Origin: Candidatus Fraserbacteria bacterium
GTDB lineage: Bacteria; Bipolaricaulota; Bipolaricaulia; RBG-16-55-9
Assembly: GCA_037442925.1 (NCBI GenBank)
Contig: JBBIPG010000023.1
Location: forward strand, 1-29,702
Direction: 5' to 3'
DNA length: 29,702 nt
Shown: one piece after another, positions 9,532-29,359 of the stretch
How the letters are laid out: every line of letters begins with the position of its first letter
How positions within the stretch are numbered: position 1 is the stretch's first letter
The notes under the pieces: model-generated
The model's input: only the letters and a program-made list of their open reading frames with translations
Told to the model about the DNA's origin: nothing
The model's database searches: none
Program-made: the position numbers and the translations under genes

Positions 9532-10147
9532 GTGCACTCCCGCGGCTTGGAAGCGAACCGCGAAGCAGATCTTCCAAGAACTGTACGATACGCTCTGGAT
9601 TCAGTTGGAGAGGCGGACTCTTTCTAGCCCATGGGACTTGATGCCCCCTCTCTGAGAGAGTGGGTCTCGCATCCATGGCTAGTCCAGTCTGCAGATAGGC
9701 TTGAATGTCTTCAGGAATTCGTAGCATTCCGCTCTCCAGCCGTCTTCGGATCTTGTCTGGAGCCAATCGCTCACGGTAGGCAAGCACTTCCAGCGAAATC
9801 TCCGCCAGCCGCCGCGCCAGGCGCAATGTAAAATAATCTCCGCGTCTGGCAAGGCGAATCCTCTCTGCCCACTCCTCGATCTTCTGCCGATGCTCCATCG
9901 GCACGCCATGGCGTGCCCGCCTTGTCTTTTCCCGCTTGACGAAGCCCCTCCCAATGATGACGATAGCAACTCCGATGAAGAGGGCCCAAAGAAGCGACTG
10001 AGGAAGGCTCTCGATGTAAAGACGCACGAACCAGTACGCATACAAGAGGGGCACGACAATGGCCTCGCGTAGGAAATCCTGAAACGCGAGAGCCAGAAGA
10101 CTTGAAAGAAGCACTACCAGTCCCAAGGGAATCCAATATTTCTTCAC
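9521..10147 (-). CDS. Hypothetical membrane protein of the MoxR locus
   Basis: Two to three N-terminal hydrophobic segments plus a soluble helical domain; overlaps both neighbours. Confidence 0.75.
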   Translation of the reverse strand: MKKYWIPLGLVVLLSSLLALAFQDFLREAIVVPLLYAYWFVRLYIESLPQSLLWALFIGVAIVIIGRGFVKREKTRRARHGVPMEHRQKIEEWAERIRLARRGDYFTLRLARRLAEISLEVLAYRERLAPDKIRRRLESGMLRIPEDIQAYLQTGLAMDARPTLSERGHQVPWARKSPPLQLNPERIVQFLEDLLRGSLPSRGSAHER

Positions 10148-11013: not shown

Positions 11014-11085
11014 GTTCTAAATACAACGTCGCTCCTGATCTGCCTACTTCAGTAGTATATGTCCGAGCCAGGAAAGTTCAACTCA

Positions 11086-11295
11086 TCACTCCGTCATGGC
11101 CGCTTTGTGAGCTTGAGTTTCCGCAATGAAATCGCCTTCCCACCAGATTTCCACGTACGGTGCGCGATCCCGAGGACAACGCAGTGCAATGATCCAACCG
11201 GGCACCGACTCGGCATCGATGGCGATAGGTTGATCCTCAGAGATTTCGTTGAAAGACAGCTTCTCCCAGAAAGTGACAGCCTCTTTGAGCTCCAT
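11086..11295 (-). CDS. Small hypothetical protein (69 aa)
   Basis: ATG preceded by AAGGGGG; protein-like composition; fills the gap co-directionally with the DUF4129 gene. No family recognised. Confidence 0.5.
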   Translation of the reverse strand: MELKEAVTFWEKLSFNEISEDQPIAIDAESVPGWIIALRCPRDRAPYVEIWWEGDFIAETQAHKAAMTE

Positions 11296-11482
11296 CCGGC
11301 CCCCTTTTGCTGGTGCTTTTTGTTCAGAATGATCTTACTATCCTCCTTTAGGGAGCTGTCAAATCGTTCCGTAATGGCGAATACAGCCACCGGATTTTCA
11401 CCAGCCTTCCATGGATTTTCCACCAAACCTGTCACCATAATCTACCGAAACAAGGGGAAGAAAACCGAGAGGAGGACTCAGA

Positions 11483-12733: not shown

Positions 12734-12750
12734 ATTCTAGTCGCTGAGGC

Positions 12751-12821
12751 AAGAAACGGAGGCGGGGTCCCCGGAGGATGGGAGAGGGCATTGCTTTACG
12801 GGACCCCGCTTCTTCGTTCTT
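12751..12821. terminator. Large-loop hairpin; possible bidirectional terminator or small RNA
   Basis: GCGGGGTCCC (12762-12771) pairs with GGGACCCCGC (12800-12809), with extended outer pairing and T-rich tails on both strands. Confidence 0.55.
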
Positions 12822-12862
12822 CGGCCCGTTTCCCGATGGAACCTTCTGAGCTATATGTCCAC

Positions 12863-12891
12863 TTGACAATCTGTCACAGCTTCTGTATATT
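12863..12891 (+). promoter_or_regulatory. Sigma70 promoter of the metal operon
   Basis: TTGACA (12863-12868), 17 nt, TATATT (12886-12891). Confidence 0.8.
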
Positions 12892-12906
12892 TAGCCTCAC
12901 CTAAAT
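12889..12906. promoter_or_regulatory. DtxR/MntR-family operator
   Basis: Palindrome ATTTAG-CCTCAC-CTAAAT. The core TTAGCCTCACCTAA resembles TTAGG-N4-CCTAA-type DtxR/MntR/SirR boxes. It overlaps the -10/+1 region directly upstream of a DtxR-family gene. Confidence 0.8.
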
Positions 12907-12926
12907 TTGTCTTTCGGAGAAACGAA

Positions 12927-13607
12927 ATGCACACGCAAGCTGTAGAAGACTACCTGAAGGCCGTCTATGAGATCCAGCGGGAACAAGGCGAAGTCACCAC
13001 CACGGCCTTGGCAGAACGTCTGGACGTCTCGCCAGCGTCCGTCACCGGCATGATCAAGAAACTGGCCGACATGAAACTGTTGACTCACGAACCCTATCAA
13101 GGAGTCACCCTCACCAGAGCCGGACTCAAGATCGCCCTCGAAGTCATTCGTCATCACCGACTGGTCGAACTGTATCTTACGGAAGCTCTGGGTGTGCCGT
13201 GGGATCAAGTCCATACAGAAGCCGAGAAGTGGGAGCATGTGCTATCGGAAGAGTTGGAAGAGCGCATGGATGCTCTGCTCGGCTACCCAACCGCCGATCC
13301 ACATGGCGCGCCGATTCCCAGGCGCGATGGTACGCTCACTCAACCCGCTCGCCTGCGTTTGGCGGATATGCAGGCCGGCCAGTCTGCTGCCGTCGCGGAA
13401 GTCAGCGATCACGATCCGGCCCTGCTTCGATATCTGGGCGAGCTGGGGCTCTACCCCAAAGTGCACGTGACGGTGATGGCCGTAGCGCCCTTCCACGGCC
13501 CGTTGACAATCCGCATTGGCGAAGTGGAACACAGTATCGGTCATGAAGCCGCACAACACGTGTATGTGACGAGATTCTCGAATCGACGACCGGGAGGAGC
13601 CCGATGA
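12927..13607 (+). CDS. mntR: DtxR/MntR-family metal-dependent repressor with a C-terminal FeoA domain
   Basis: EDYLKAVY, VSPASVTGMIKKL, RHHRLVELYL, EAEKWEH and DPHGAPIP; FeoA-like C-terminus. Confidence 0.92.
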   Translation: MHTQAVEDYLKAVYEIQREQGEVTTTALAERLDVSPASVTGMIKKLADMKLLTHEPYQGVTLTRAGLKIALEVIRHHRLVELYLTEALGVPWDQVHTEAEKWEHVLSEELEERMDALLGYPTADPHGAPIPRRDGTLTQPARLRLADMQAGQSAAVAEVSDHDPALLRYLGELGLYPKVHVTVMAVAPFHGPLTIRIGEVEHSIGHEAAQHVYVTRFSNRRPGGAR

Positions 13608-14626
13608 AAGCGAGAATCTCACGGCGGAAATTCTTGCGCCTGGGAGCGATAGGGACAGCAGGTCTTACAGGCGCAGCAGCCCTGGCTGCCACCCAATGGA
13701 CGCGCGATACATCCACACTCGAGACAAATCAGTCACGCTTGGAACACGATCATGCGGGCGTCGTTGGCCGAGTCGATCACGTACGCAATGGCTTCGATCC
13801 CATGGCACTGCTCACGGATTTCGATTACGGGCGGGTGAGCACGCTCGCCACCGGTCAGCCCCTACGCGAGTATGTAGTGGTCGCCTCGGACAAAGAGATC
13901 GAAGTCGCACCAGGGATATTCTTCCCTGCCTGGACGTATAATGGCCGCGTCCCCGGCCCGACCATACGGTGCACCGAAGGCGACAGAGTTCGCGTGAGAT
14001 TCGTGAACGGAAGCGCACACCCTCACACGATCCACTTTCACGGCATCCATACTGCTGAGATGGACGGCGTACCAGGGATCGGGGCGGGAATGATCGCACC
14101 CGGCGAGAGCACCGTCTACGAGTTCGATGCTGAACCCTTCGGCTGCCATCTCTATCATTGCCACGCGGTCCCCCTCAAGCGGCACATTCACAAGGGGCTC
14201 TATGGGGCCTTCATCATCGATCCCAAGTCGGGCAGGCCCCCGGCTCGTGAGCTGGTCATGGTCATGAACGGTTTTGACACCAACTTCGATGGCGAGAACG
14301 AGATCTACGCCGTGAACACCGTAGCCTTCGAGTACCTGCAACGCCCTATTGCGATCAGGCTCCATGAACTCGTGCGGGTCTACTTGATCAACATCACAGA
14401 GTTTGATCTCCTCAACTCCTTCCATCTCCACGGAGAGTTCTTCTGGTGGTATCCCACAGGCACGAGCCTTCAACCAGCAGAATATACAGATACCGTGATG
14501 TTGACGCAGGGTCAGCGGGGCATTCTGGAGCTCAAATATAAGTTCCCCGGCAAGTACATGTTCCACGCTCATCAGAGCGAGTTTGCCGAGCTGGGCTGGG
14601 CCGGATTCTTCGAGGTGACACCGTGA
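13604..14626 (+). CDS. Tat-exported two-domain multicopper oxidase
   Basis: SRRKFL Tat motif; WTYNGRVPGPTIR; Cu motifs HTIHFHG, YHCH...HIHKGL, NSFHLHG and FHAH. Confidence 0.9.
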   Translation: MKARISRRKFLRLGAIGTAGLTGAAALAATQWTRDTSTLETNQSRLEHDHAGVVGRVDHVRNGFDPMALLTDFDYGRVSTLATGQPLREYVVVASDKEIEVAPGIFFPAWTYNGRVPGPTIRCTEGDRVRVRFVNGSAHPHTIHFHGIHTAEMDGVPGIGAGMIAPGESTVYEFDAEPFGCHLYHCHAVPLKRHIHKGLYGAFIIDPKSGRPPARELVMVMNGFDTNFDGENEIYAVNTVAFEYLQRPIAIRLHELVRVYLINITEFDLLNSFHLHGEFFWWYPTGTSLQPAEYTDTVMLTQGQRGILELKYKFPGKYMFHAHQSEFAELGWAGFFEVTP

Positions 14627-15846
14627 AAGCTGTCACACAAAAACGAGAAGCAGCAGAGACTCAGACAAGAAGACTCCGTCTGCCCGCTTGGCTTCTCACC
14701 CTACTACCCTTGCTCACTCTGGCTATGCTCTTGTGGGCTTTTGTTGCGCTTGATCCACTCCGCTCCCTGACGGGCGATCTTCCGCCCATCGAACTATTGA
14801 CCATCGAGCGAATTGAGCTCAGGCCGGAGGGAATGATCGCACACGTGGTCAACGGCGGCCCGCAGCCTGTGACTCTCGCTCAAGTTCAAGTAGATGATGC
14901 CTACTGGCCCTTCGAGATCCAGCCTAGTTCTGAGATTCCCCGACTTGGCCGAGTCACAGTGACAATCCCGTATCCGTGGGTTGAAGGAGAGGCTCACACT
15001 GTACGACTCGTCGCCAGCACGGGCTTGACATTCGATAAGACCGTCGAGGTGGCCGTCGAGACGCCGAGGTCCGATCTCAGCTTCTGGCTCATGTTCGCTT
15101 TGCTTGGTTTCTATGTGGGCATCGTGCCCGTTTCTTTGGGATTGATGTGGTTCCCACTGCTTACGCGATTGAGTCAGCAGGGCTTGAATTTCATCCTGGC
15201 TCTGACTGTTGGCTTGCTCGTCTTCTTGTTGGTAGACACGGTGCTCGAAGGTGTTGAGGTCGCACAGCAGATTCCCAACGTCTTTCAAGCCGTACCGTTG
15301 ATCTTCTTTGCCGGCATGCTGAGCTTTCTGGCGTTGCTCGCTGTCCGTTGCAGTCGGGATGCGACCGATCGCTCGACAGGCTCTGGGAGACTCTGGCTGG
15401 CAACGATGATTGCCTTGGGCATTGGTTTACACAACTTGGGTGAAGGCATGGCAATTGGTGCAGCCATCGCCCTGGGTGAGGCAGCTCTGGGTTCGTTTCT
15501 CGTGATCGGCTTTACGCTTCACAACATCACAGAAGGCATCGGCATCGGAGCCCCGATGACGCGAGACAAGCCCAGTCTCCTCCAGCTGGCAGGACTGGCG
15601 ATGCTCGCAGGCGGTCCGGCAATTGTTGGAACGTGGATCGGGGGGTTTTCGTATTCTCCCATCTGGGCTGTGTTGTTTCTGGCTATTGGCGCCGGTGCGA
15701 TTCTACAGGTCATTTATGAGGTCACTCGACTGTGGGTGATTCAGGAGACTGACGCTGCGCTGCCAGCGGCATCTTGGGTGAATGTAGGTGGATTGGCCGC
15801 AGGCATCGCCATCATGTATCTCACAGCGTTCTTGGTGAAGTTCTAG
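14623..15846 (+). CDS. ZIP-family metal transporter with an N-terminal extracytoplasmic domain
   Basis: ZIP motifs GLHNLGEG and TLHNITEG; an N-terminal TM plus a soluble beta-rich domain of about 110 aa precedes the membrane core. GTG start overlaps the oxidase stop. Confidence 0.88.
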   Translation: MKAVTQKREAAETQTRRLRLPAWLLTLLPLLTLAMLLWAFVALDPLRSLTGDLPPIELLTIERIELRPEGMIAHVVNGGPQPVTLAQVQVDDAYWPFEIQPSSEIPRLGRVTVTIPYPWVEGEAHTVRLVASTGLTFDKTVEVAVETPRSDLSFWLMFALLGFYVGIVPVSLGLMWFPLLTRLSQQGLNFILALTVGLLVFLLVDTVLEGVEVAQQIPNVFQAVPLIFFAGMLSFLALLAVRCSRDATDRSTGSGRLWLATMIALGIGLHNLGEGMAIGAAIALGEAALGSFLVIGFTLHNITEGIGIGAPMTRDKPSLLQLAGLAMLAGGPAIVGTWIGGFSYSPIWAVLFLAIGAGAILQVIYEVTRLWVIQETDAALPAASWVNVGGLAAGIAIMYLTAFLVKF

Positions 15847-15863
15847 CGAGGAATCTGGTTGGA

Positions 15864-17153
<1,290 letters not shown>

Positions 17154-17155
17154 GG

Positions 17156-18073
17156 ATGTTCAAGAGACTACTGGTGCCGCTCGATGGTTCACGTCTCGCC
17201 GAGAGCGTTTTGCCAGCAGCGGTCTACCTCACCGAGCGTTTCAGCGCGACGATTGTGCTCTTTCACGCTGTCGAGGCAGGTGCCTCTTCGACCGTTCACG
17301 GTCAACGGCATCTGTTAAGTGCCGATGAGGCACAGGCATACCTCGATGAAGTCGCTAAGAGCTTGTCAAACACGAGCGCACCCATTGAAACGAATGTACA
17401 CACAGGCGGCGAGCTTCATGTGGCACAATGCATCATCGATCACGTCGCTGAGTTGAAGGCGGACTTGGTCGTGCTTTGCGCCCATGGACGCGGAGGCTGG
17501 CGCGATCTGGTCGTGGGGAATATCGCGCAACAGGTGATTCAGGGTGGCACGACACCAGTCCTATTCGTTCGTCCCGAGCAGGCAAATCAGGCACCGTCGT
17601 TCGCTTGCCGCCAGATTCTCGTGCCGCTCGATGGAACACCAATTCATGAACCGGCGCTACCGGTTGCGGCAGAGATTGCCCGTGTCTGTCGCTCCGCGAT
17701 ACACTTGCTCACGGTCGTGCCGACGCTCAGCACGCTCTCGGCGGAACGAGCAGGGACAGGGTTGCTTCTGCCCACGACAGTCGCTGCCGTGCTGGAGCTG
17801 GCCGAGCGCGGAGCTATCGAGTATTTGCAGAGCAAAGCGAAAGAAATTATGTCGGATGATCTCGTGGTATCCACAGAGGTGGTGCGAGGTGATCCAGCGT
17901 CCTCGCTTTTAGACAAAGCAAAGCATGTGAAGGCAGATCTGATTGTGATGGCTACCCATGGACGACCGAGTATGGACGCGTTCTGGTCTGGTAGCGTGAC
18001 TCCCAGGGTCTTATTCCGATCCACAACACCGGTCTTGTTAATACGTGTGTCTGGGGAAGAATCAGCCCGGTAA
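17156..18073 (+). CDS. Tandem-domain universal stress protein
   Basis: Two USP domains: LLVPLDGS...ADLVVLCAHGRGG...GNIA and ILVPLDGT...ADLIVMATHGR...GSVT. Confidence 0.92.
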   Translation: MFKRLLVPLDGSRLAESVLPAAVYLTERFSATIVLFHAVEAGASSTVHGQRHLLSADEAQAYLDEVAKSLSNTSAPIETNVHTGGELHVAQCIIDHVAELKADLVVLCAHGRGGWRDLVVGNIAQQVIQGGTTPVLFVRPEQANQAPSFACRQILVPLDGTPIHEPALPVAAEIARVCRSAIHLLTVVPTLSTLSAERAGTGLLLPTTVAAVLELAERGAIEYLQSKAKEIMSDDLVVSTEVVRGDPASSLLDKAKHVKADLIVMATHGRPSMDAFWSGSVTPRVLFRSTTPVLLIRVSGEESAR

Positions 18074-18091
18074 TCTCCAAGGAGGTCCAAG

Positions 18092-19003
18092 ATGCCCCAA
18101 CGCGATTATCTCATCGTGCTCAACAAAGACGAAGACACCGCATCGTTCATCGAGATCCCCAGCCATAAAACATTGAAAACGATCCCCGTAGGACACAATC
18201 CCCACGAGATCGGCCTCTCACCTGATGGGAAATTCTCCTATGTGTCGAATGCGGGTGGAAACAGCGTCTCCGTGATCGACAATGTCTCGATGAGCGAAGC
18301 AGAACGACTGGAACATCCGGAGTATCAATTCCCCCATGACATCAAGATCACGCCCGATGGCAAAAAGCTCTATCTGGCTGTGACGTACGCCAATAAAATC
18401 TTCGTCTATCGACGACCCTCTCACGAACTGCTCAAGATCATCCCGACAACTCAACGATTGTCGCACATGCTTGCTCCCACTCCTGACTGGAGGCGCATCT
18501 ATGTCCCGAACATTGGCTCGCACACGCTTTCGGTGCTCAGCACGCAGACGGACAAGATCGAGCTTCACATTCCTGTCGGCAAGGGTCCTGAGGGTGTGGC
18601 CGTACACCCCAAGGGGGAATTTCTCTACGTCGCAAATCAAGATGATAATAATCTGTATGTGCTCAGCACGGAACGCCATGGGATCATTGCCAAACATCCC
18701 TTGGGCACTTGTCCGGTGCGTGTGGTCTTCTCGACTGATGGAAAGTATGCCTTCATCGCCAACCGTGAGTCACACGATGTTTCCGTAGTAGATACATCGA
18801 GGCATTGGGAAATCAAGCGCATTCCCGTAGGACGCTGGCCGGGGGGCATCGTCTTCGATTCCCAGGGTGCACAGGCATATATCGCCAACAACAAAACCAA
18901 TGATATTTCGATCATTGATGTGGCTACTCTGAAGGAAGTCGGGCGTATTGACGCCGGAATCCACCCCGATGGCATCGCGTTCTTATCGACAGAGCCCATG
19001 TGA
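18092..19003 (+). CDS. YVTN/YncE-type beta-propeller repeat protein without a signal peptide
   Basis: Repeats such as IPVGxxPxxxxxSPDGKxxYVxN and VSVID; RBS AAGGAGG. Confidence 0.88.
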   Translation: MPQRDYLIVLNKDEDTASFIEIPSHKTLKTIPVGHNPHEIGLSPDGKFSYVSNAGGNSVSVIDNVSMSEAERLEHPEYQFPHDIKITPDGKKLYLAVTYANKIFVYRRPSHELLKIIPTTQRLSHMLAPTPDWRRIYVPNIGSHTLSVLSTQTDKIELHIPVGKGPEGVAVHPKGEFLYVANQDDNNLYVLSTERHGIIAKHPLGTCPVRVVFSTDGKYAFIANRESHDVSVVDTSRHWEIKRIPVGRWPGGIVFDSQGAQAYIANNKTNDISIIDVATLKEVGRIDAGIHPDGIAFLSTEPM

Positions 19004-19014
19004 GAAATCTCACA
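18999..19014. promoter_or_regulatory. TGTGA-N6-TCACA palindrome (CRP/FNR- or Rex-like operator) upstream of the benzoyl-CoA cluster
   Basis: TGTGAGAAATCTCACA, with a candidate -10 TACAAT at 19058-19063. Confidence 0.6.
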
Positions 19015-19114
19015 GTTTTCTTTGAGTCTTCTTACAGACAATCTCTCGTCTTGCGTTTACAATCACTTCGATCTGATTGGCGACCACTATTGGTCACCCG
19101 AGGAGAGGATCACT

Positions 19115-19834
19115 GTGACCCAAGTCAGTATGGAGTCGAAGCTCCTCGAACTCATGCGCCAGATGAGCGAAGGTGCCCATACGGAAGAGATCGCTGGACG
19201 TTTGGGCATCATGCGCCATACCGCGGCCAAATACCTCGAAATCCTCCGCGCCAAGGGCCTAGTTCGCTGTCGCAAAGTGGGCAATGCCAAGCTCTGGCAA
19301 CCCATGATAGCCGGGCTCGCCATCCGCCCCCTCACCATAGAAGATCTACCAGCCATCTTAGAGCTTCAAAACCAACTCCAGCCGATGGAGGAAGAGGCTC
19401 GCACCACCTTTGTCCAGACGCTGGAATACCACATCGAGTACGGTGACGCGGCATTGCGACTGGGTGCTGAACTCCAGGGCCAGCTTGTTGGATTCATCCT
19501 TGGGGAGATCCGCGTCTGGGAGTTCGGTGGTGGGGAGAAGACAGGTTGGATCAAAGCACTCATGGTCGCTCCGGAGTATCACCGCAGGGGAATCGGGCGG
19601 CAGTTGGGTGAGGCTCTCTTGGAGCATTTCCGCAGTCGTGGGATCGAACATGTGCGCACTCTTGTGAATTGGTACGCGGGAGATCTGCTTGCCTACTTCC
19701 GCTCCTTGGGCTTTGAGGTGATGCCCATGTTGCCTCTCGAAAGACGCATGAGCGGGCTCCATAGCCCTGGCACACACCGATCCTCGGCGACCATAGACCC
19801 TAGCAAACGAGAGAACGGAGGGGGTTCTCCATGA
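19115..19834 (+). CDS. HTH-GNAT fusion protein (putative transcriptional regulator)
   Basis: N-terminal wHTH TEEIAGRLGIMRHTAAKYLEILRAKGLV; C-terminal GNAT domain with the CoA-binding motif A YHRRGIGRQL and YFRSLGF. GTG 19115 follows GAGGAGAGGA; ATG 19130 is an alternative. Confidence 0.82.
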   Translation: MTQVSMESKLLELMRQMSEGAHTEEIAGRLGIMRHTAAKYLEILRAKGLVRCRKVGNAKLWQPMIAGLAIRPLTIEDLPAILELQNQLQPMEEEARTTFVQTLEYHIEYGDAALRLGAELQGQLVGFILGEIRVWEFGGGEKTGWIKALMVAPEYHRRGIGRQLGEALLEHFRSRGIEHVRTLVNWYAGDLLAYFRSLGFEVMPMLPLERRMSGLHSPGTHRSSATIDPSKRENGGGSP

Positions 19835-20691
19835 AGACGGACACCACGAAGATCGGGGCAATTGATTTCATGTACTACGTGGCCACAAAGGAGTTCATGT
19901 CAGAGTGGGACAAGGCCAAAGAGGGCGAACTCATCTGTCGGATGGAGCGGGCGATTGGGGGGCTTCCGCGCTACGAGAGCATGGAGAAGATGCTGGAGCT
20001 GATGGACGAGGCCGGCGTCGAAAAAGTCTTCATCACCCAATGCAAGATGTGGTCCTACTGGAACAAATGGATGTACATGGACACGAAGCTCGAAGACGTG
20101 CTGCAATACACTGAAAAATATCCCGATCGCTTTGTGGGGCTTGCAGGCTATAACCCGTTTCGCATCAAAGAATCTCTAAAAGAGATCGAAATAGCCATCA
20201 AGGATCACGGCTTCAAGGGCGTCTATGTGCACATCTACGGCTTTGACATTCCCTTGCACGACAGCAAGATGTACCCGCTCTATGCCAAGTGCGTTGAACT
20301 CGATGTGCCCGTCTCGATGCAAGTGGGGCATGTACTAGAATCCATGCCCAGCGACTGCGGTCGCCCCATCTATCTTGATCGCATTGCCTGCGATTTTCCC
20401 GATCTCAAGATCATCGGGGCCCACACGGGCTGGCCGTGGGTCGAGGAGCTCTTGAGCGTCTGTTACAAGTGGGACAATGTGTGGTTTGGTGTGGATGCTT
20501 GGCTGCCCAAGTATCTCAAGCCCGAGATCATTCAGTTCATCAACAGCCGGATGGGCCAGGATCGCTGCATCTGGGGGACGAACGGGTTGCCATGGAGAGA
20601 GAATCTGAAACAGATTGATGAGCTGGGCTTGAAAGAAGAGGCAAAGCGCAAGCTCTTGCGGGAGAACGCCATCCAGCTCTTCAAGCTCTGA
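19831..20691 (+). CDS. Amidohydrolase-2 family protein with atypical metal ligands
   Basis: MDEAGVEK, YPDRFVGLA, YPLYAKCVELDVPV, DFPDLKIIGAHTGWPW and KRKLLRENAIQLFKL. Confidence 0.85.
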   Translation: MKTDTTKIGAIDFMYYVATKEFMSEWDKAKEGELICRMERAIGGLPRYESMEKMLELMDEAGVEKVFITQCKMWSYWNKWMYMDTKLEDVLQYTEKYPDRFVGLAGYNPFRIKESLKEIEIAIKDHGFKGVYVHIYGFDIPLHDSKMYPLYAKCVELDVPVSMQVGHVLESMPSDCGRPIYLDRIACDFPDLKIIGAHTGWPWVEELLSVCYKWDNVWFGVDAWLPKYLKPEIIQFINSRMGQDRCIWGTNGLPWRENLKQIDELGLKEEAKRKLLRENAIQLFKL

Positions 20692-20693
20692 GC

Positions 20694-21470
20694 ATGAGTT
20701 CTCAAAGCGTATTCGTCGAGCGGACTGATGCTGTAGCCAAGGTGCTCTTGAAGCGCCCGCCGCTCAACATTCTTGACATCTCTGCCTTGAAGGAACTGAG
20801 TGCTGCTCTTGAAAGACTGCATCGAGACAAGAGTAAAGTCGTAGTGCTCGCGGCCGAGGGTAAAGCGTTCTCGGCAGGCGTGGACATCAAAGATCACACA
20901 CCTGACAAAGTGAACGCGATGATGCTCGTTCTGCGCGATGTGTTCGAAAAGCTCTGGGCCCTGGAGCAGCCGACGTTGGCCGTGGTGCAGGGCGCGGCGC
21001 TGGGTGGAGGCATGGAGTTGGCGATCGGTTGCGACTTCATTATTGCCTCAGAGAATGCGCAGTTCGGCCAGCCTGAGATCAAAGTCGGAGTCTTCCCCCC
21101 GATTGCGTGTCTGCTCCTGCCACGACTACTGCCTTGGCCCAAGGCACTCGAACTCATTCTGACCGGAGAATCCATCACAGCCCAAGAAGTGCATCGTTGG
21201 GGGCTGGTGAATCGCGTTGTGCCTTCTGAGCAGTTGGAGGCAGAAGCGAACTCTTTCGTAAACAAACTCACGAGCTTAAGTGGGCCAGCACTGAAACTGG
21301 CCAAGCGCGCTTCGCTCATCGGCTTCGGGCAAGAGTGGGGAACGCTGTGGGCGAAGACATACGCGCAAATCGAGCGTCTCTATCTCGATGAGCTGATGAA
21401 GCTTGAGGACGCGCACGAGGGCCTGAGGGCGTTCATAGAGAGACGCAAGCCGGTCTGGAAGCAACGTTAG
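20694..21470 (+). CDS. dch: Enoyl-CoA hydratase, probably cyclohexa-1,5-diene-1-carbonyl-CoA hydratase
   Basis: Crotonase motifs FSAGVDI, ALGGGMEL and FGQPEIKVGVFPP; Dch-like C-terminus ERLYLDELMKLEDAHEGL; adjacent to bzdN. Confidence 0.8.
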   Translation: MSSQSVFVERTDAVAKVLLKRPPLNILDISALKELSAALERLHRDKSKVVVLAAEGKAFSAGVDIKDHTPDKVNAMMLVLRDVFEKLWALEQPTLAVVQGAALGGGMELAIGCDFIIASENAQFGQPEIKVGVFPPIACLLLPRLLPWPKALELILTGESITAQEVHRWGLVNRVVPSEQLEAEANSFVNKLTSLSGPALKLAKRASLIGFGQEWGTLWAKTYAQIERLYLDELMKLEDAHEGLRAFIERRKPVWKQR

Positions 21471-21487: not shown

Positions 21488-22633
21488 ATGTTCGAGCAGT
21501 TTCGCCATTGGTATGAGCAACGCCATGACTACGCACGCGATTGGAAATCGCGCACGGGTGGGAAAGTCATCGGCTGTTTCTGCACGTATGAACCTGAGGA
21601 GATCCTCTATGCTGCAGGTATTCTGCCCGTGCGCGTCTACGGGAGCCATCAGCCCAATAGCGTCACGGAGGCGCACATTTTCGGGATGTATTGTCCTTGG
21701 ACGCGCGATGTGCTTGCTCAGGGCCTGCTGGGCAAATATGCCTATCTCAATGGAATCGCAATTTCGCAGAGCTGCTTGCACTTCCGACAGTGTTTTACAA
21801 GCTGGCAGAAGCACGTTCCCTGCGAGTTTTCATACTATTTGCCGATGCCGCATGGCACTCAAAGCCCTCATGGACTGAGATACTTCGCAGAAGAGCTCAA
21901 GAAGTTCAAACAAGCTCTAGAAAAGTGGGTCGGGCGGGAAATTACGGATGAAGCTCTCCGAGAGGGCATCGAAGTCATGAACGAGAGCCGCCGCTTGTTG
22001 ACACAGCTCTATGAGCTGCGCAAGTCAGAAAACCCACCGTTGACGGGTCAAGAAGCGCTCTGGGTAGTGGCCTCAGCACAGATGACCGACAAGCACGAAC
22101 ATAATCAAACACTTAAAGAACTGCTAGAGCGACTTCCCACTCGAAAGCTCGACAGGGCACCCGGCGTTCGGTTGATGCTCATCGGCAGCGAGAACGACGA
22201 TGTGGAATTCGTCGAGATGACCGAGAAGCTGGGTGCCACGTTTGTCGTGGATGAGAACTGCGTGGGCACCCGCTATTTCTGGCTTGAAGTCGACACCGAG
22301 CGTTTCAAGGACCCGCTCGAGGCGATTGCCGCACGCTATCTAGAAAGACCGGCTTGTCCTGCCAAGGATTGGCCTGAACTCTCGCGTTGGCCACACATTG
22401 AAAGGCTCGCCCACGAGTGGAAGGTCCAGGGGGCGATCTTGATGCAGCAGAAGTTCTGCGACCCCCACGAGCTGGACATGCTCACGATCAAGAAGCGTTT
22501 AGAAGAGATGGGCATTAGAACGCTCTTTCTAGAGTTTGATGTGACAACGCCGGTAGGTCAGTTCCGCACGCGGGTGGAGGCCTTCTTGGAGATGCTGAAA
22601 AGCGAAGAGCTTTTCGCGGAGGAATTGTTCTAG
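21488..22633 (+). CDS. bzdN: Benzoyl-CoA reductase, Bzd-type, subunit N
   Basis: HgdB/BcrC-type fold; RHDYARDWKSRTGGKVIG, HIFGMYCPWTRDVLAQGL, QQKFCDPHELD and GQFRTRVEAFLEM. Confidence 0.88.
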   Translation: MFEQFRHWYEQRHDYARDWKSRTGGKVIGCFCTYEPEEILYAAGILPVRVYGSHQPNSVTEAHIFGMYCPWTRDVLAQGLLGKYAYLNGIAISQSCLHFRQCFTSWQKHVPCEFSYYLPMPHGTQSPHGLRYFAEELKKFKQALEKWVGREITDEALREGIEVMNESRRLLTQLYELRKSENPPLTGQEALWVVASAQMTDKHEHNQTLKELLERLPTRKLDRAPGVRLMLIGSENDDVEFVEMTEKLGATFVVDENCVGTRYFWLEVDTERFKDPLEAIAARYLERPACPAKDWPELSRWPHIERLAHEWKVQGAILMQQKFCDPHELDMLTIKKRLEEMGIRTLFLEFDVTTPVGQFRTRVEAFLEMLKSEELFAEELF

Positions 22634-22661
22634 CATGGAGATTCTGAAAGCACGTACGACT

Positions 22662-23063
22662 TCAGATAACCAAAGTGAAGCTCATGACCCGGAAATGCTT
22701 ATCCACGGCCAGAGCTTGCGTCAACCCCAAGCGCTTCATGAGTGCGAAACTGGTGCAATCGGTGAAACTGAACTTCTGATCTTTGAACTTCTTAAAGATC
22801 TGCCAAGCTGCTTCGCGATCCTCAGCCGTCACCGAGACGAGCTGGGTCCGAGCGCTCCTCATCAATTCCTCACCGAACTGAACGGCTACACGATGGCCCA
22901 ACTCCACGCGGATAAGCGTGATCGTCTCTGCGAAAACGTAGTCGGTGGTGACCAGAGGGAGCGTGTTCCCTTCAAACCACGCTCTGGCGGCTTCATGGTC
23001 TGGGTCACGAGCGTCGGTCAGGGCATACCAGCCTCCCGTGTCAACGAAGACCCGTTCTATCAT
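22662..23063 (-). CDS. vapC: PIN-domain toxin VapC
   Basis: FVDTGGWYAL, TTDYVFAETITL, FSFTDCTSFALM and DKHF; the acidic catalytic residues are present. Confidence 0.9.
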   Translation of the reverse strand: MIERVFVDTGGWYALTDARDPDHEAARAWFEGNTLPLVTTDYVFAETITLIRVELGHRVAVQFGEELMRSARTQLVSVTAEDREAAWQIFKKFKDQKFSFTDCTSFALMKRLGLTQALAVDKHFRVMSFTLVI

Positions 23064-23069
23064 GGAGTT

Positions 23070-23312
23070 TCAATGCGACCTTTCCCTGCGGTAAAGGATC
23101 TCGTCGTGGCGTCGAGCGGCTCCGCGGCCCTTGCCCCGGCCCATACCGATGATCTTAAAGATAGAATCGCTCCTCATGTCTTCTTTAGAAGCACAGATCG
23201 AGGTTTCAATCAGTTCCCGCACCAGAGCCGACATGCTCTTGCCCTCGCGCTCCGCACGATCCTTCAAATACTGATACTGCGCTTCCTCCAACACGATGTT
23301 CGTCCGCTTCAT
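23070..23312 (-). CDS. vapB: CopG/RHH-type antitoxin
   Basis: [10 protein letters not shown]...[20 protein letters not shown] is a ribbon-helix-helix pattern; C-terminal [16 protein letters not shown]; directly upstream of vapC. Confidence 0.85.
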
Positions 23313-23328
23313 ACACCCTCCATTCGCT

Positions 23329-23362
23329 ATTACACATTACACAACAAGCCATGCGATGTCAA
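23329..23362 (-). promoter_or_regulatory. Candidate vapBC promoter with a tandem TGTGTAA operator
   Basis: Minus strand TTGACA (23362-23357) followed by TGTGTAATGTGTAAT (23343-23329). The -10 spacing is non-ideal. Confidence 0.5.
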
Positions 23363-23383
23363 GGAAGAGCTCAGGAGGTCGAG

Positions 23384-24715
23384 ATGAAAACACTGACGAA
23401 ACACCAGACGGAACCATTGAAGTGTTGGCCCAAAGCGAAAGAATTGAGATTGCGATACTACCAGAACTACGCGACGGCCCACGAGCGCGGGGGCTTGCGC
23501 TGGACCGGCGGAGCTTGGGCGTTTGATGCAATTCCAGCGGGCTTGGGTGATGACGTCTACCCGCTCACCGGAGAGCCCTACGGCGCTTCTATTGCACACG
23601 ATCAAAAATTCTCACTCGAGTGTATGGAGGCTGCAGAGCGTGTGGGTTTCGCCCGCGATCTGTGCTCCTATATGCGCAACTACTGGGGCTCGATCTTGTT
23701 GAATAAGTATGCCTTCGGTGGAGAGTTCCCCAAGCCCGACTTCATCTGGCAATCGCACATCTGCTGTAGTCATGCCAAATGGTATCAAGTCGCTAGTCAA
23801 CTCGAGGGCGGCATCCCCATGTTCTGCGTGGATGTCTCTGTTGGACCGTATGAATCGCTCACACAAGAGAAGCTCGACTATCTGGTGGCACAGATGCACG
23901 ATGGGATCACATGGCTAGAGAAGACGACGGGGCGAACGTACGACGACGAGAAACTCATTCAAGCTGTGAATAACGAGTGTCGTTCGACGAGCTTGTGGGC
24001 TGAAGTCTGTTGCTTGAATAAGAGCATCCCGGCACCCCTGGATGAGAAGACAATGTATTCCCTCTACGTGCTGGCCACGCTCCAGAAGAGCAGCAAGGAG
24101 GTCGCCGACTTCTACGAAGAGCTGCGCGATGAAGTCAAAGATCGAGTTGCGCGAGGGATTGCTTCTTCCGAGTATGAGCAGTGCCGAGTGATGACCGACA
24201 CCCAGCCGCCCTGGGCCTTTCTCGATGTGTTTAGATACTTGCAGAACACCTACGGCTGCGTCTCCATTGGTAGTCTCTACACCTTCGGGCTCTGCGGGAT
24301 GTTTGAAGTCAAAGCCGACGGCACGTGGGGTCCGCGGGCGACGCCACAACAAATGGGCATCAAAATTAAAACCCGCGATGAAGCACTTAAAATCTTGGCC
24401 GATTGGAATCTCTCTCGTCCGGAGTGGCAGCACTTCTACTCGCATGAGCTTAAGAGCGAGATGCTCGTTCGTATCGTCAAAGAATGGCAGGTGGACGGGG
24501 TGCTGTTGCACTTCAACCGCGGCTGCGAGGGGCTGTCGCTGGGCATCGCTGAGAATAGACTCGCATTACAGAAGGCGGGCATCCCGGTGACGCCCTTTGA
24601 AGGCAACATGGGCGACTGGCGGGAGTTTGACAAGACAAGAACCCTTGCGCGCGTGGATGCATTCATGGAATCGCTCCGGGTCCCACGCATCGAACGAGCT
24701 GCATCAGGAGCGTGA
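23384..24715 (+). CDS. bzdO: Benzoyl-CoA reductase, Bzd-type, subunit O
   Basis: [56 protein letters not shown] and FEGNMGD. ATG 23384 follows AGGAGG. Confidence 0.9.
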
Positions 24716-25515
24716 TGGACATGATTACGGCAGGCATTGATGGCGGCGCACGGACCATCAAAGTGCTGATCTTGCAAGACGGCAAAGTGCTAGCTAAGAG
24801 CTCTTCTGTTACGGGGTTCGATCAAGAGGCCTCGGTGGCCCAGGCGTTCCAAAGCGCTCTGCAACAAGCGGGCCTCGAACGCGAGCAACTTCAGCACACC
24901 ACAGCCACCGGCATCGGGCGTAAAGTGCTGCGCACGGCTTCAATGGCTCAAAGCGAGGTCACGGAGATGAGCGCCGACGCCAAAGCCGCAGTCTTTCTCT
25001 TTCCATCGGTACGCACGGTGATCGACGTCGGAGCCGAAGAGGGCCGTGCGATCCGTTGTGAGCCCGACGGACGAGTCAAAGACTTTGCTGTCAACGAAAA
25101 ATGCGCTGCCGGTGCGGGGACGTTCGTCGAGACGATGGCCCGCACACTGGAGATCCAGCTCGAAGAGGCGGGAGCACTCTCCCTCAAGGCCGAGAAAGTG
25201 ATCCCGATGAACGCCCAGTGTGCGGTCTTTGCCGAGAGCGAAGTGGTTTCATTGATCCACTCTGGAGCGGCGAAGGAGGAGATCATTCGCGCTGTGCACG
25301 AGGCGATGGCCGACAGGATTTCTGCGATGGCTCGGCGGGTGGGCGTCGAACGAGAAGTGGTACTCGTCGGCGGTGTTGGAAGAGATATCGGCTTCATCCA
25401 GGCTCTCACGGGAAAGCTCGAGATGGAACTACTGGTTCCTGAAGAACCGGAGTACGTCGGAGCCCTCGGCGCAGCCCTCATCGCGGCGGAACGGGCAAGC
25501 AGTCAAGGAGGTTGA
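24715..25515 (+). CDS. bzdP: Benzoyl-CoA reductase ATPase (activase) subunit P
   Basis: ASKHA motifs AGIDGG, ATGIGR, IDVGAEEGRAI, NEKCAAGAG and MNAQCAVFAESEVVSLIH. Confidence 0.88.
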   Translation: MDMITAGIDGGARTIKVLILQDGKVLAKSSSVTGFDQEASVAQAFQSALQQAGLEREQLQHTTATGIGRKVLRTASMAQSEVTEMSADAKAAVFLFPSVRTVIDVGAEEGRAIRCEPDGRVKDFAVNEKCAAGAGTFVETMARTLEIQLEEAGALSLKAEKVIPMNAQCAVFAESEVVSLIHSGAAKEEIIRAVHEAMADRISAMARRVGVEREVVLVGGVGRDIGFIQALTGKLEMELLVPEEPEYVGALGAALIAAERASSQGG

Positions 25516-25524
25516 AATCCCACT

Positions 25525-26436
25525 ATGGCAGAGGCAACTCTAACAGCTCCGAAGCGCGAATACTGGCGCTGGAAAGAATACAACTGGCGAGATGAATCTC
25601 TCGATTGGCGTCAAGCAAACGTGATCTCCGTCGGCATTGACGTAGGCTCAGTTAGCTCTCAAGCTGTCGTGCTCTGCGATGGAAAGCTTTTTGCGTACAG
25701 CAGCCTGCGCACGGGTTCCAATTCTCCGACGAGTGCGCAGCGAGCACTGGATACGGCCTTGCAAGATACGGCAATGCCCCGTGAGAAGATTCAGTACATC
25801 GTCGCAACTGGCTACGGGCGCGTGAACATCCCGTTTGCACAGAAGGCGATCACCGAGATCGCCTGCCACGCCCGCGGGGCTAACTTCATCTATGGACCCA
25901 GCGTGAGAACGGTCTTAGATATGGGAGGTCAAGATTGCAAAGCGATTCGTTGTGATGAACGAGGCAAAGTGACAAATTTCTTGATGAATGACAAATGCGC
26001 GGCGGGCACGGGCCGGGGAATGGAAGTGATGGCAGAATTGTTGCAAGTCCCCATTGAAGAGGTCGGTTCTGCTTCTCTTTCACCGCCCGAGGAGCCGCCG
26101 CCAGTGAGCAGCACTTGTGTTGTCTTTGCGAAATCAGAAGCGCTCGGTTTGCTGCGGCAGAACTGGTCGAAAGAGAAAGTGCTCGCGGCCTTTTGTCTGG
26201 CGATGGCCCATCGCACGGTCGAGCTTCTGTCGCGGATCGGAGTCGAGAAAGACTTCGCGATCACGGGTGGGATTTCCAAGAACGTCGGAATCGTCAAACG
26301 CATCGAAGCGGAGCTGGGAATACAGGCATTGAAGCCCACCATTGACCCGCAGATCGCAGGAGCATTGGGCGCGGCACTCTTTGCCAAGGCGCTCTATGAG
26401 AAAGAAGGTGCTGGGAAAGCTTCTTCTGGAGGCTGA
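25525..26436 (+). CDS. bzdQ: Benzoyl-CoA reductase ATPase subunit Q
   Basis: N-terminal EYWRWKE, GIDVGSVSSQAV, TEIACHARG, DMGGQDCK, MNDKCAAGTGRG and SSTCVVFAKSE. Confidence 0.9.
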   Translation: MAEATLTAPKREYWRWKEYNWRDESLDWRQANVISVGIDVGSVSSQAVVLCDGKLFAYSSLRTGSNSPTSAQRALDTALQDTAMPREKIQYIVATGYGRVNIPFAQKAITEIACHARGANFIYGPSVRTVLDMGGQDCKAIRCDERGKVTNFLMNDKCAAGTGRGMEVMAELLQVPIEEVGSASLSPPEEPPPVSSTCVVFAKSEALGLLRQNWSKEKVLAAFCLAMAHRTVELLSRIGVEKDFAITGGISKNVGIVKRIEAELGIQALKPTIDPQIAGALGAALFAKALYEKEGAGKASSGG

Positions 26437-26437
26437 G

Positions 26438-26725
26438 ATGCTGGCCAACTACGGCTACAAAGACGGTTCCGGCGAGTATTTCATCGCCATCGACACAGAG
26501 AAGTGCAATGGCTGCGGGGCTTGTGTGACTGCCTGCCCCATGGGCCTTTTCGAAGTTGTTGCTGACCCCTTTGATCCGTTGGCTGAGAACCAGATTGCCG
26601 TCGTCAAAGAAGAGCATCGCAAGAAGCTCAAGTATAGCTGTGCCCCCTGCAAGCCTACGGGCGAGCGCCCGCCGCTGCCCTGCGTGATGTCTTGCCAACC
26701 TACGGCAATCGCACATTCTTGGTGA
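26438..26725 (+). CDS. bzdM: 2x[4Fe-4S] ferredoxin, BzdM-type
   Basis: MLANYGYKDGSGEYFIAID; CNGCGACVTACP and CAPCKP...PCVMSC. ATG 26438 follows GGAGG. Confidence 0.85.
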   Translation: MLANYGYKDGSGEYFIAIDTEKCNGCGACVTACPMGLFEVVADPFDPLAENQIAVVKEEHRKKLKYSCAPCKPTGERPPLPCVMSCQPTAIAHSW

Positions 26726-26730
26726 GTGCC

Positions 26731-29154
26731 ATGCAGGTCGCAATTGACGGACGAGCTGTTTCTGCGTGTCGCGGAGCAACCGTCTTAGAGGCTGCGCGCG
26801 CGGCAGGCATCTATATCCCGGCGCTCTGTGCTCATCCCGACTTGATGCCCGGTCCTCGTGCGCAACCAATCTCGACCATCTATCGCAGCACAAACAAGCT
26901 CGAAAGCGATGGGAGTTCACGAACGCAGGGTTGCCAGCTTTGTCTTGTAGAAGTCAACGGAGAACTACATCGCGCCTGCGACACAGTCATCTCTGAGGGA
27001 GTGAGCGTTCAAACAGACACAATCCGAGTCCGCGAGGCACGCGGTTTGCATCTTAAAGAGATTCTTCAAGATCATCCCCATGCGTGCTTGATCTGCCCCT
27101 TGGCCTTGGGTTGTGATCGGCTGAGCTGTACGATGAATGTGCCTGTCGAGGAGCGGTGTTGCTCGCTCTTTGGTCGCTGCGAATTGCAGAAGATCTCTGA
27201 ATATATCGGCATCCCACCAGAGACGCCCCGCTATGCGCACAAGAAGCTGCCTATACTCAAGAACGAGCCGCTCTTTGATTTAGACTACAATTTGTGCCTC
27301 AACTGCCTGCGCTGTGTGAGTGCTTGCAACGATCTGCGTGGCGTGGGCGCCTTGGGCTTTGTCATCCGGGATAGTCGCGCTCTCTTCGGTACAGTTGGTC
27401 CAACGCTCTTAGAGTCAGGCTGTAAATTCTGTGGCGCTTGCGTTGCCGTTTGTCCCACGGGTGCTCTCATGGACAAGGGTGGTAAAAAACTCCAAGATGA
27501 AGACTCGCTTGTGCCCTGTCGTGCCGGTTGTCCGGCAGGCATTGACGTGCCACGCTACGTTCGTCTGATTGCGGAAGGCAAGTACCCTGAAGCCCTGGCC
27601 GTCGTCCGAGAGCGAGTGCCATTTCCCCATGTGCTGGGATACGTCTGCTATCACCCCTGCGAGACGGTCTGCCGACGAGGCGGACTGAATCAGTCCATCT
27701 CCATCTGTCGGCTCAAGCGGTTCGCCGCCGAGCATGATGACGGGAGCTGGAGATTGAAGGTCAAGCGAAGCTTGCCAACGGGCAAGCGAGTCGCCGTCGT
27801 CGGTTCCGGTCCGGCGGGATTGACAGCGGCTTACTATCTGGCGCGCAAGGGGCACGCTGTGACTGTCCTTGAAGCTCTTCCACAAGCTGGAGGGCTAATG
27901 CATTATGGCATCCCAGCGTATCGTCTGCCGCGTCAGATTCTCGATGCTGAGATCTCTGAAATCGAAGCCACGGGCGTCGAGATTCGAACCAATGTGAAAG
28001 TCAACTCTATCGAAGAGCTTTTCGCACAAGGCTTTCAGGCAATTTATCTCGCAGCAGGGGCAACACGAGCACGCAAACTGAACATCCCTGGCGAAGATCT
28101 TTCGGTCGATGGCCTCACATTCTTGCGGCGAGTCAATGCAAGCGAACGTGTCTCTGTAGGAGCGCGTGTGGGTGTCATCGGCGGCGGAAACGTGGCAACC
28201 GATTGCGCACGCACCGCTCTGCGTCTTGGAGCTCAGCAAGTGGTCATTCTCTATCGCCGCACCCGAGCAGAGATGCCTGCCTACCCTGAAGAGATCGAAG
28301 AAGCCGTATACGAGGGTGTCGAGATCGAATATCTGGTGATGCCTCGGCGGATCGAGAAAAGTTCCCCAGGCCTGCGTGTCGAGTGTGTGCGGACACAGCC
28401 AGGGCCTAGGCAAGCTGAACCAGAGCCAATCACAGGAAGCGAGTTTTCAATCGAGTTTGATATGGTACTCGTTGCCATCGGCCAAGAGCCGGAACCAAGT
28501 CTGCGAGCTGCTCTTGAGGCAAAGCAAGCAGGCGTGTTTGCGGGTGGTGATCTTGTGAGCGGACCCTCCTCGGTGATCGAAGTCATCGCGATGGGGCGAC
28601 GAGCGGCGAGCGAAATCGATCGCTATTTGGGGGGGGATGGAGATATTAGCGAATGCCTCACCATGCCTGATGAAGTTAACAATCGCCTAGGCCAGGAGCT
28701 TGATTTCGCGAGTTCAAAGCGCTATGAAGCTCCGTGCTTGTCCGTCATGGCACGGCGTACAGAATTCGCCGCTGTGGATGAGGGACTATCGGAAGAGGCA
28801 GCACTTGCGGAAGCAGCGCGATGCTTGCGATGCGATTTACGACTCAGACTGTCGAGTGTGCCCTTCCCTCCTCAGCGCACAGTCAACCCCCTCACAAATG
28901 AGGGGGTTACCAAAGTACCAGATCGCGCTGGGGTCTATCAGCTGTTCGATCAAGACCAGAACGTAATCCAGATCAAGGGTGTGCCTGATTTACAGACTGC
29001 GTTGAAAGAGCTATTGCCAAGCGTCAACTCTCGCTTCTTCGTCTATGAGTTGGTCGAGTTCTACACGCAGCGTGAGAGCGAACTGTTGCAGGAATACTTG
29101 CAGAAACATGGACGACTTCCCCAAGGCAATGACGAACTGGAAGATCTCTTCTGA
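26731..29154 (+). CDS. bzdV: BzdV-like NAD(P)H:ferredoxin oxidoreductase (NuoG-like Fe-S N-terminus, GltD-like flavin domain, small C-terminal domain)
   Basis: IPALC...CQLCLVE...AC (2Fe-2S), HPHACLIC, CLNCLRCVSAC, CKFCGACVAVCP, PCRAGCP, GSGPAG, GGGNVATD, YRR and EAARCLRC. Confidence 0.82.
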   Translation: MQVAIDGRAVSACRGATVLEAARAAGIYIPALCAHPDLMPGPRAQPISTIYRSTNKLESDGSSRTQGCQLCLVEVNGELHRACDTVISEGVSVQTDTIRVREARGLHLKEILQDHPHACLICPLALGCDRLSCTMNVPVEERCCSLFGRCELQKISEYIGIPPETPRYAHKKLPILKNEPLFDLDYNLCLNCLRCVSACNDLRGVGALGFVIRDSRALFGTVGPTLLESGCKFCGACVAVCPTGALMDKGGKKLQDEDSLVPCRAGCPAGIDVPRYVRLIAEGKYPEALAVVRERVPFPHVLGYVCYHPCETVCRRGGLNQSISICRLKRFAAEHDDGSWRLKVKRSLPTGKRVAVVGSGPAGLTAAYYLARKGHAVTVLEALPQAGGLMHYGIPAYRLPRQILDAEISEIEATGVEIRTNVKVNSIEELFAQGFQAIYLAAGATRARKLNIPGEDLSVDGLTFLRRVNASERVSVGARVGVIGGGNVATDCARTALRLGAQQVVILYRRTRAEMPAYPEEIEEAVYEGVEIEYLVMPRRIEKSSPGLRVECVRTQPGPRQAEPEPITGSEFSIEFDMVLVAIGQEPEPSLRAALEAKQAGVFAGGDLVSGPSSVIEVIAMGRRAASEIDRYLGGDGDISECLTMPDEVNNRLGQELDFASSKRYEAPCLSVMARRTEFAAVDEGLSEEAALAEAARCLRCDLRLRLSSVPFPPQRTVNPLTNEGVTKVPDRAGVYQLFDQDQNVIQIKGVPDLQTALKELLPSVNSRFFVYELVEFYTQRESELLQEYLQKHGRLPQGNDELEDLF

Positions 29155-29359
29155 ACAGCTCGAGAGTGAAAACTGGGAGCGGCGAGGGATCTTCACCGAG
29201 CCGAGACTTAGCGAGCTTGTCGCGCTTTACCAGGAATTGGGCTATGAGGTGCTGGTAGTGTCTCCCGATCCCTCAGAGATTGACGACGCGCCTTGTCGTG
29301 AGTGTTTCTTGCTCTTTCCAGAACGCTTCAAAGTGCTTTATACGCGTTTGACCGTTTAA
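29129..29359 (+). CDS. Small conserved-looking hypothetical protein with CxxC, closing the bzd cluster
   Basis: WERRGIFTEPRLSELVALYQELGYEV...CRECF...LYTR; overlaps the bzdV end. The start is uncertain. Confidence 0.65.
   Translation: MTNWKISSEQLESENWERRGIFTEPRLSELVALYQELGYEVLVVSPDPSEIDDAPCRECFLLFPERFKVLYTRLTV

Follow-up and report, generated by a model that had tools for sequence, protein, structure and literature searches.

Few regulators of anaerobic benzoate genes have been described, and the available part of the BzdR work names BadM, BamVW, BgeR and BzdR (PMC6678401). According to the same part, BzdR of Azoarcus/Aromatoleum is a one-component repressor that is encoded directly upstream of bzdN, binds TGCA repeats in three operators and is released by benzoyl-CoA, while AcpR, an activator of the FNR/CRP type, acts at the BzdR-controlled promoter (PMC6678401). 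A GNAT protein has been linked to repression of a benzoyl-CoA reductase operon in Rhodopseudomonas palustris, where, in the accessible portions of that study, BadL (GNAT) is paired with BadM (Rrf2) and homologues of the two are noted in Geobacter metallireducens and Magnetospirillum (PMC6191541).

The window studied here, a stretch of 29,702 nucleotides from Candidatus Fraserbacteria, carries a gene for a 239-residue protein at the head of a reductase operon (Table 1). The gene is a single open frame with a GTG start and a ribosome site, GAGGAGAGG, ahead of it. A longer frame from a TTG codon at 19022 was rejected, since the homologues start near 19115 and the extension would cross the promoter and operator. 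In profile searches, residues 6-61 matched winged-helix families (FaeA, PF04703, E 1e-5) and residues 68-203 matched GNAT families (PF00583, E 8e-14), both above cut-off. The AlphaFold model (mean pLDDT 82.5, pTM 0.70) contains three helices and a two-strand wing, then a GNAT fold, then a low-confidence tail, and a Foldseek comparison aligned the GNAT part with YpeA and AAC(6') at a TM-target of 0.7-0.8. Motif A reads H156-R-R-G-I-G161 (HRRGIG), and the protein belongs to the GNAT superfamily by its fold and this CoA-pyrophosphate loop. The winged helix-GNAT fusion, the intact RRGIG motif and the position as first gene of the reductase operon, its stop sharing ATGA with the next start, had all been proposed in the preliminary description, and each was borne out by these analyses, with the ATGA at 19831-19834 and bzd genes downstream; the alignment adds that the second GNAT motif is non-canonical. 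Homologues numbered 181 at E<=1e-3, and the best 120 of them were 46-100% identical over 72-100% of the length; the nearest named ones came from Fraserbacteria and Acetothermia, followed by Aminicenantes and Acidobacteriota. The recognition helix (R34-H35-T36..K39-Y40-L41) is kept in 118-120 of the 120 aligned homologues. The family has its own Atlas cluster of 312 members (0.98), named merely acetyltransferase.

Table 1. Features of the regulator region and the operon that follows it in the window
Feature	Position	Strand	Evidence
TGTGA-N6-TCACA box, perfect palindrome	18999..19014	.	putative activator site; scores as a weak terminator too
Sigma-70-like promoter, CAGACA-17-TACAAT	19035..19063	+	9 of 12 matches; shuffles give 0.4, weak alone
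Candidate operator TGGCGACCACTATTGGTCACCC	19078..19099	.	family consensus TGGTAACCAATATTGGTTACCA; 12.7 bits
wHTH-GNAT regulator gene, 239 aa	19115..19834	+	domain matches, homologues, AlphaFold model
Winged helix domain, aa 1-63	19115..19303	+	winged-helix family matches, AlphaFold model
GNAT domain, aa 68-212	19316..19750	+	motif A at aa 156-161; family matches, fold, alignment
Amidohydro_2 metal hydrolase	19831..20691	+	85-90% identical across the window's lineage
Enoyl-CoA hydratase, Dch-like	20694..21470	+	below cut-off, 168.6 of 292.5 bits
bzdN, 250-aa ORF, bzdO, bzdP-type activase, bzdQ (class I benzoyl-CoA reductase)	21488..26436	+	profile matches
Ferredoxin and Fe-S flavoprotein oxidoreductase	26342..29154	+	profile matches
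Small Cys-containing ORF	29045..29359	+	no Pfam match; recurs near reductase/GNAT genes

The known regulators had been described beforehand as being of other design. By domain tests this holds for BzdR, BadM and BgeR, but the BadL(GNAT)/BadM pair, as given in the available portion of the study, had been overlooked (PMC6191541). The helix domain here spans about 60 residues against about 130 for the Rrf2 domain of BadM and BgeR, and the Rrf2 profile (PF02082) stayed below its cut-off (18.2 bits against 30, with only positions 12-56 of 132 covered). The BzdR sensor is shikimate-kinase-like; here a GNAT domain is present, no shikimate-kinase Pfam match was obtained, and a single 22-bp palindrome takes the place of the TGCA repeats, while the putative repressor ahead of bzdN, together with a candidate CRP/FNR activator, recalls the BzdR arrangement. 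The likeness to BadL/BadM lies in a GNAT and a winged-helix repressor on a benzoyl-CoA reductase operon, with a CRP-family activator, AadR, on top; the difference is that two genes are involved there and one here, and that the published model, in the portion available, invokes a diffusible acetamidobenzoate (PMC6191541). Unlike that pair, the fused family also serves class II reductases, and a stand-alone GNAT gene clustered with an Rrf2 gene, as for BadL, was not seen, the GNAT being fused here and following DUF2080 in the unfused members examined. The design is a one-protein variant of the known BadL/BadM logic, and the regulator would be at most a fused relative of BadL, with which it was compared by the primer-encoded ends of BadL. 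'Bifunctional' MarR/ArsR-GNAT fusions share the helix-turn-helix plus GNAT architecture, but their Atlas clusters, at 0.84-0.89 (under 0.9), are separate from the 312-member cluster, and no operator or pathway link for them was found in the literature searched. In that literature, mostly non-subscription, no paper was found on the present fusion or on DUF2080 in aromatic degradation.

The window operon is of the Bzd class I type, with BzdN (500.6 bits against a cut-off of 453.8), BzdO (698.9/448.6) and BzdQ (433/380.2) above the NCBIfam cut-offs and a second activase present. The amidohydrolase is presumably BzdT-like, and the ferredoxin and Fe-S flavoprotein are taken to be BzdM/BzdV-like. 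The 250-aa ORF between bzdN and bzdO (22635-23387) has no family match and was seen elsewhere only in L002. Relatives of the small Cys-containing ORF adjoin reductase or GNAT genes in L001, L003, L125, L126, L157-L159 and L161. Directly upstream of the regulator region, at 12927-19003, lie MntR, multicopper oxidase, ZIP-like, Nramp, Usp and YVTN propeller genes, a manganese-type operon that is not conserved together with the regulator.

The benzoyl-CoA pathway is incomplete in the genome of origin, which is 94% complete: besides the sub-threshold Dch-like hydratase, the best Had match is 33%, and Oah, the ring-opening enzyme, was found above cut-off in none of the six genomes of the window's lineage (own genome, G506, G511, G514, G525 and G529). 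Because of the missing Oah and the poor Had match, the substrate in this lineage is unsure and may not be plain benzoyl-CoA. It could be that the well-conserved amidohydrolase marks another ring-opening route. In the related locus L003, a Bcr-like reductase lies within the same operon.

Linkage to aryl-CoA reductase genes was examined across genomes. A genome scan gave 437 confirmed stretches, of which the best-scoring 80 loci, including non-independent kin, were kept. In the 70 of these with long matches (L068 did not cluster, and L067 and L070 begin at a contig edge with the helix domain unseen), the regulator was followed by BamB in 43 cases, BzdN in 14, an amidohydrolase-hydratase pair in 4, NifB in 4 and another gene in 4; BamB was identified by its 1259 bits to PDB 4z3w. 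Bam and Bzd are unrelated enzymes that catalyse the same reaction. In L038 and L040 (Bam) and L049 (Bzd), the upstream genes are common and the regulators sister, yet the reductases differ. On a quick tree of the regulators, built without L067, L068, L070 and the unfused rows, the reductase labels shift repeatedly, with at least four changes for Bam, three for Bzd and two for Nif (starred branches). Within 251 genomes of one class, a sample that contains kin and carries no completeness figures, the regulator was detected in 21, Oah in 36, BzdO in 9 and BamB in 14; Oah accompanied the regulator in 20 of its 21 genomes and BzdO or BamB in 17, while 6 of the 23 genomes with BzdO or BamB had no fused regulator. 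The proposal that the protein is a transcriptional regulator linked to operons for aryl-CoA reductases is supported by the gene neighbourhoods and the genome counts, and the candidate operator falls within the 18990-19115 probe that had been suggested. The preliminary description had named homologues mostly unlinked to aromatic or CoA metabolism as grounds against this proposal; the BamB and BzdN neighbours and the Oah co-occurrence clearly contradict such a lack of linkage.

Word counting over 66 upstream regions plus the window gave the 22-bp family consensus palindrome TGGTAACCAATATTGGTTACCA. Sites scored above the best of 330 shuffles in 57 of the 66 regions, on which the matrix was itself trained, so that the window, the paralogue on contig C2 and the later loci are the independent cases. 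With a matrix trained without the window, the window site was the second-best in its 2.07-Mb genome; the best (19.9 bits) precedes the C2 paralogue, and the top two sites therefore stand ahead of the two paralogues. The operators of the closest relatives are weak (L001, 6.2 bits; L002, 7.7 bits) and, with that of L014, lie slightly below the shuffle maximum of 8.9 bits. In L040 and L064, strong sites lie just beyond the stretch scored, and in L005 (masked), L009, L063 and L068 no operator was found upstream. In G001, G003 and G004 the site occurs once, beside the regulator. Second copies were seen before oah-had-dch (L050:6474) and in an acetyl-CoA synthase cluster (G002:C87:6675-6695). In 52 related loci the operator starts 27-33 bp after the TTGACA of the -35 box, a position that would coincide with the -10 box and transcription start, where repressors bind. 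This placement makes it very probable that the fusion binds the palindrome and acts as a repressor.

The box at 18999, which we take to be of the CRP/FNR type, lies 106-146 bp upstream in the window's lineage only. The upstream regions of L001-L004 and L033 contain it, another copy precedes the paralogue (C2:19835), and nine such boxes occur in the genome. As an operator of the regulator itself it was rejected, being restricted to one lineage.

GNAT domains of the same kind also occur without the helix domain. They were found in 76 of 251 genomes of another phylum, and in the best 30 unfused loci of those 76 genomes the GNAT gene was directly before BamB in 16 cases and stood behind a DUF2080 gene (60 aa, weakly similar to MazE/AbrB) in 24. 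Four archaeal loci contain the DUF2080 and unfused GNAT pair, three of them ahead of bzdN, and DUF2080 was present in none of the fused loci. TRTAGYTA repeats with an 11-bp period were detected in 23 of 29 distinct unfused loci but in none of the 67 fused ones, and shuffled sequences gave 2 in 580; the 22-bp palindrome was present in 0 of the 29. Operator type follows the DNA-binding module while the GNAT stays constant; the operator changes with the DNA-binding partner, because DUF2080 loci carry the repeats and never the palindrome. The BadL/BadM pair would make three DNA-binding modules on one kind of GNAT, if BadL is admitted by its primer-encoded ends.

The DUF2080-GNAT layout (L117:1290-1932, L132:1501-2124, L076:9804-10426 and about 25 more, before bamB or bzdN) resembles a toxin-antitoxin arrangement used as a regulator. 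In L157 and L159, Bzd activase genes and bamB share one cluster, and each block has its own unfused GNAT. In 4 of the 30 best unfused loci (L127, L129, L139 and L143) the GNAT gene stands behind a gene for a geranylgeranyl-reductase-like flavoprotein; in this side group of the GNAT, the flavoprotein either precedes the GNAT or is joined to it (P0259, P0323). Tandem GNAT-GNAT forms (P0249, P0250) and an activase-GNAT fusion (P0307) were also seen. The paralogue in the genome of origin (G000:C2:19928-22075; L081:7929-10076) is fused to a GltD-like flavoprotein, a fusion that occurs independently as P0240; in L033 the paralogue is unfused. Por and Kor operons follow it, and an operator, a CRP box and a Crp-family gene of its own lie upstream. 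Because of the paralogue's context and those with the geranylgeranyl-reductase-like flavoprotein, the GNAT domain is not confined to aromatic genes.

The interpretation of these data that we favour, with a probability of roughly 55% as a whole, is that the protein is an autorepressor with a GNAT domain that senses a CoA thioester. The fusion would bind the 22-bp palindrome and repress its own Bzd-type reductase operon; its GNAT domain would bind a CoA thioester, probably the aroyl-CoA substrate, whereupon the repressor would be released from DNA. Benzoyl-CoA, put forward in the preliminary description as the effector, is a candidate ligand. A further, anoxia-dependent input in the window's lineage probably comes from a CRP/FNR-type activator bound at the 18999 box, by analogy with AcpR beside BzdR in Azoarcus.

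The active site favours, with some reserve, a ligand-sensing over an enzymatic role for the GNAT domain. In the sequence alignment, Ala188 and Phe195 stand where Naa20 and Naa30 have Asn and Tyr, so that the regulator lacks the two canonical catalytic residues of the last-helix motif (N..A..xY..LG[FY]), the Asn and the Tyr that serves as general acid. Position 195 is Phe in 120/120 fused proteins; across all 256 rows of the alignment it is either Phe or Leu, and at position 188 Asn is outside the four commonest residues in every group aligned. The CoA loop is retained (G159 in 116/120 and G161 in 120/120 fused proteins), and W135-E-F-G and W145, an aromatic loop, are nearly invariant among them. 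Because the Tyr and Asn are lost while the CoA loop and aromatic loop are kept, the site would fit CoA-ester binding without efficient catalysis. Some GNATs do function without the Tyr. PanZ is a non-catalytic acetyl-CoA-binding GNAT, and the use of the domain as a CoA-ester sensor is proposed here likewise.

The same repressor could instead carry an active N-acetyltransferase of the BadL type, acting on an aromatic amine such as aminobenzoate, with the product or the catalytic cycle freeing the DNA and the neighbouring amidohydrolase perhaps removing the signal. In the portions of the BadL study available, the acetamidobenzoates formed by BadL homologues reduce the binding of BadM, BadL is dispensable once BadM is absent, and primers (Table S3) encode BadL ends IELEKPLD, FIQFEKDL and MEKNLD, like the family end motif FIxLEKxL (PMC6191541). 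An amidohydrolase gene adjoins the regulator in L001-L004 and is divergent in L030, L035, L064 and L150. We regard this as unlikely, though well short of negligible: the canonical Tyr and Asn are absent in the fused family, a diffusible product requires no fusion, and the unfused members examined had no Rrf2 gene immediately upstream. Moreover, as far as the accessible text goes, the activity of BadL did not rise above background in a kinetic assay, gel shifts required 10 mM product, and no acetylation of BadM was observed (PMC6191541).

It is less probable still that the repressor responds to free CoA, acetyl-CoA or succinyl-CoA as a general pool, and not to an aromatic ester, linking the costly low-potential reductases to the carbon and electron state of the cell. 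Such a role would suit the paralogue, which heads genes for the GltD-like flavoprotein and for pyruvate and 2-oxoglutarate:ferredoxin oxidoreductases, as well as the lack of Oah in the window's lineage and the unfused members in other contexts. However, pyruvate and 2-oxoglutarate:ferredoxin oxidoreductases are also known electron donors of class I reductases, and the main clade tracks Oah-bearing genomes (20/21).

Acylation of pathway enzymes by the GNAT domain had been offered earlier as an alternative to sensing; the targets would be the reductase or CoA ligase, and the helix domain would only autoregulate. Motif A is intact, and the best PDB sequence matches of the domain include protein N-acetyltransferases; the idea is nevertheless weakened to the point of being very improbable, as the catalytic Tyr and Asn are absent, the domain is always found with a DNA-binding module at the operon head, and BadL, in the part of the study available, did not acetylate BadM (PMC6191541). 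That the palindrome belongs to another, unlinked factor, the fusion having no role there, is hardly to be credited: the TGGT-N-ACCA half sites presumably resemble GntR/FadR sites and an extra site precedes the acetyl-CoA synthase genes in G002, but the site is single-copy beside the regulator in the three other genomes named above, stands ahead of both paralogues of the genome of origin and is absent where DUF2080 replaces the helix domain.

In four loci (L024, L026, L031 and L037), the operator and regulator lead directly into nifB, and the three longer of these continue with two nifH genes and a nifD-like and a nifK-like gene (L024:10640-16284). The regulator is single-copy in the four genomes concerned. 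They contain Oah (three above cut-off, one a contig-edge fragment) and a Had-like gene below cut-off; BzdN, BzdO and BamB were not found in them, nor was an adjacent HGD-D gene pair, one short G002 fragment being ambiguous. They are the only 4 of the 251 genomes of the class with the nifD-like gene, and the 21 regulators fall into three non-overlapping groups, 7 Bzd, 10 Bam and 4 nif-like. Identity among the nif-like genes of the four genomes is 91-96%, and a single spread may account for them, and 12 of 36 Oah genomes show none of the three reductases, so that absence from assembled genomes is common. A metagenome scan gave 12 nif-like loci, four with operator, regulator and nifB (L150, L151, L154 and L156) and seven too short upstream to judge. 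L153 (nif-like operon at 6773-13084) has no such regulator; there the gene order is oah, SDR, thiolase, Dch-like hydratase, nifB, nifH, nifH, nifD, nifK, Had-like dehydrogenase, acyl-CoA dehydrogenase and ETF. A homocitrate/isopropylmalate-synthase-like gene lies upstream of this oah.

The nif-like operon is not a Mo-nitrogenase: the D-like proteins scored 71-84 bits against 653 (TIGR01282) and the H-like proteins 284-300 against 394, and no nifEN was found in the nif-like loci. Cys 67, 92, 159 and 289 of the D-like chain align to Cys of PDB 9fmg/9d9u, which we take to be MarD, and the nearest solved chain gave E 1e-19 to 1e-20. The NifB, NifH and NifD/K-like set is shared with group IV nitrogenase-like systems (methylthio-alkane and isethionate reductase) and with DPOR/COR, but here there are two nifH genes and the neighbours are genes of the benzoyl-CoA pathway, not sulfur genes. 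DPOR and COR are nitrogenase-like enzymes able to reduce conjugated rings. The exact 7/10/4 split and the L153 set among ring-degradation genes suggest an undescribed nitrogenase-like aryl-CoA reductase, a candidate assignment that we narrowly favour.

Two other candidates for the reductase of the nif-like genomes were set aside. A single HGD-D gene with an activase beside had/oah occurs in 36 of 39 pathway genomes irrespective of which reductase they have, and the second HGD-D gene of G001 encodes a double-cubane protein beside selA/selD. The had/oah cluster at L104:2060-6196 (G004:C30) contains one such single HGD-D subunit together with an activase and an acyl-CoA ligase of the ADP-forming type. 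No proposal of a nitrogenase-like benzoyl-CoA reductase was found in the literature searched, mostly non-subscription and including the available parts of a 2026 review and a 2026 paper; the part of the review available has no occurrence of 'benzo', 'aromatic' or 'dearomat' (PMC13474568).

A bolder reading of the gene neighbourhoods, on which we place even odds, is that the regulator marks an aryl-CoA reductase slot, that the nif-like set would be an ATP-dependent benzoyl-CoA reductase performing a biological Birch reduction with a NifB-made cluster, and that the GNAT would be a portable aroyl-CoA sensor on three DNA-binding modules (fused winged helix, DUF2080 and Rrf2).

In several uncultured phyla, the fused family, with its ready candidate operator, is linked to reductases of both classes. 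DUF2080 gains a first functional handle from its pairing with the GNAT, which also hints at a possible mode of control for the class II (bam) operons of Desulfobacterota-like genomes. The fused family is also a clean test case for whether GNATs of the BadL type are enzymes or sensors.
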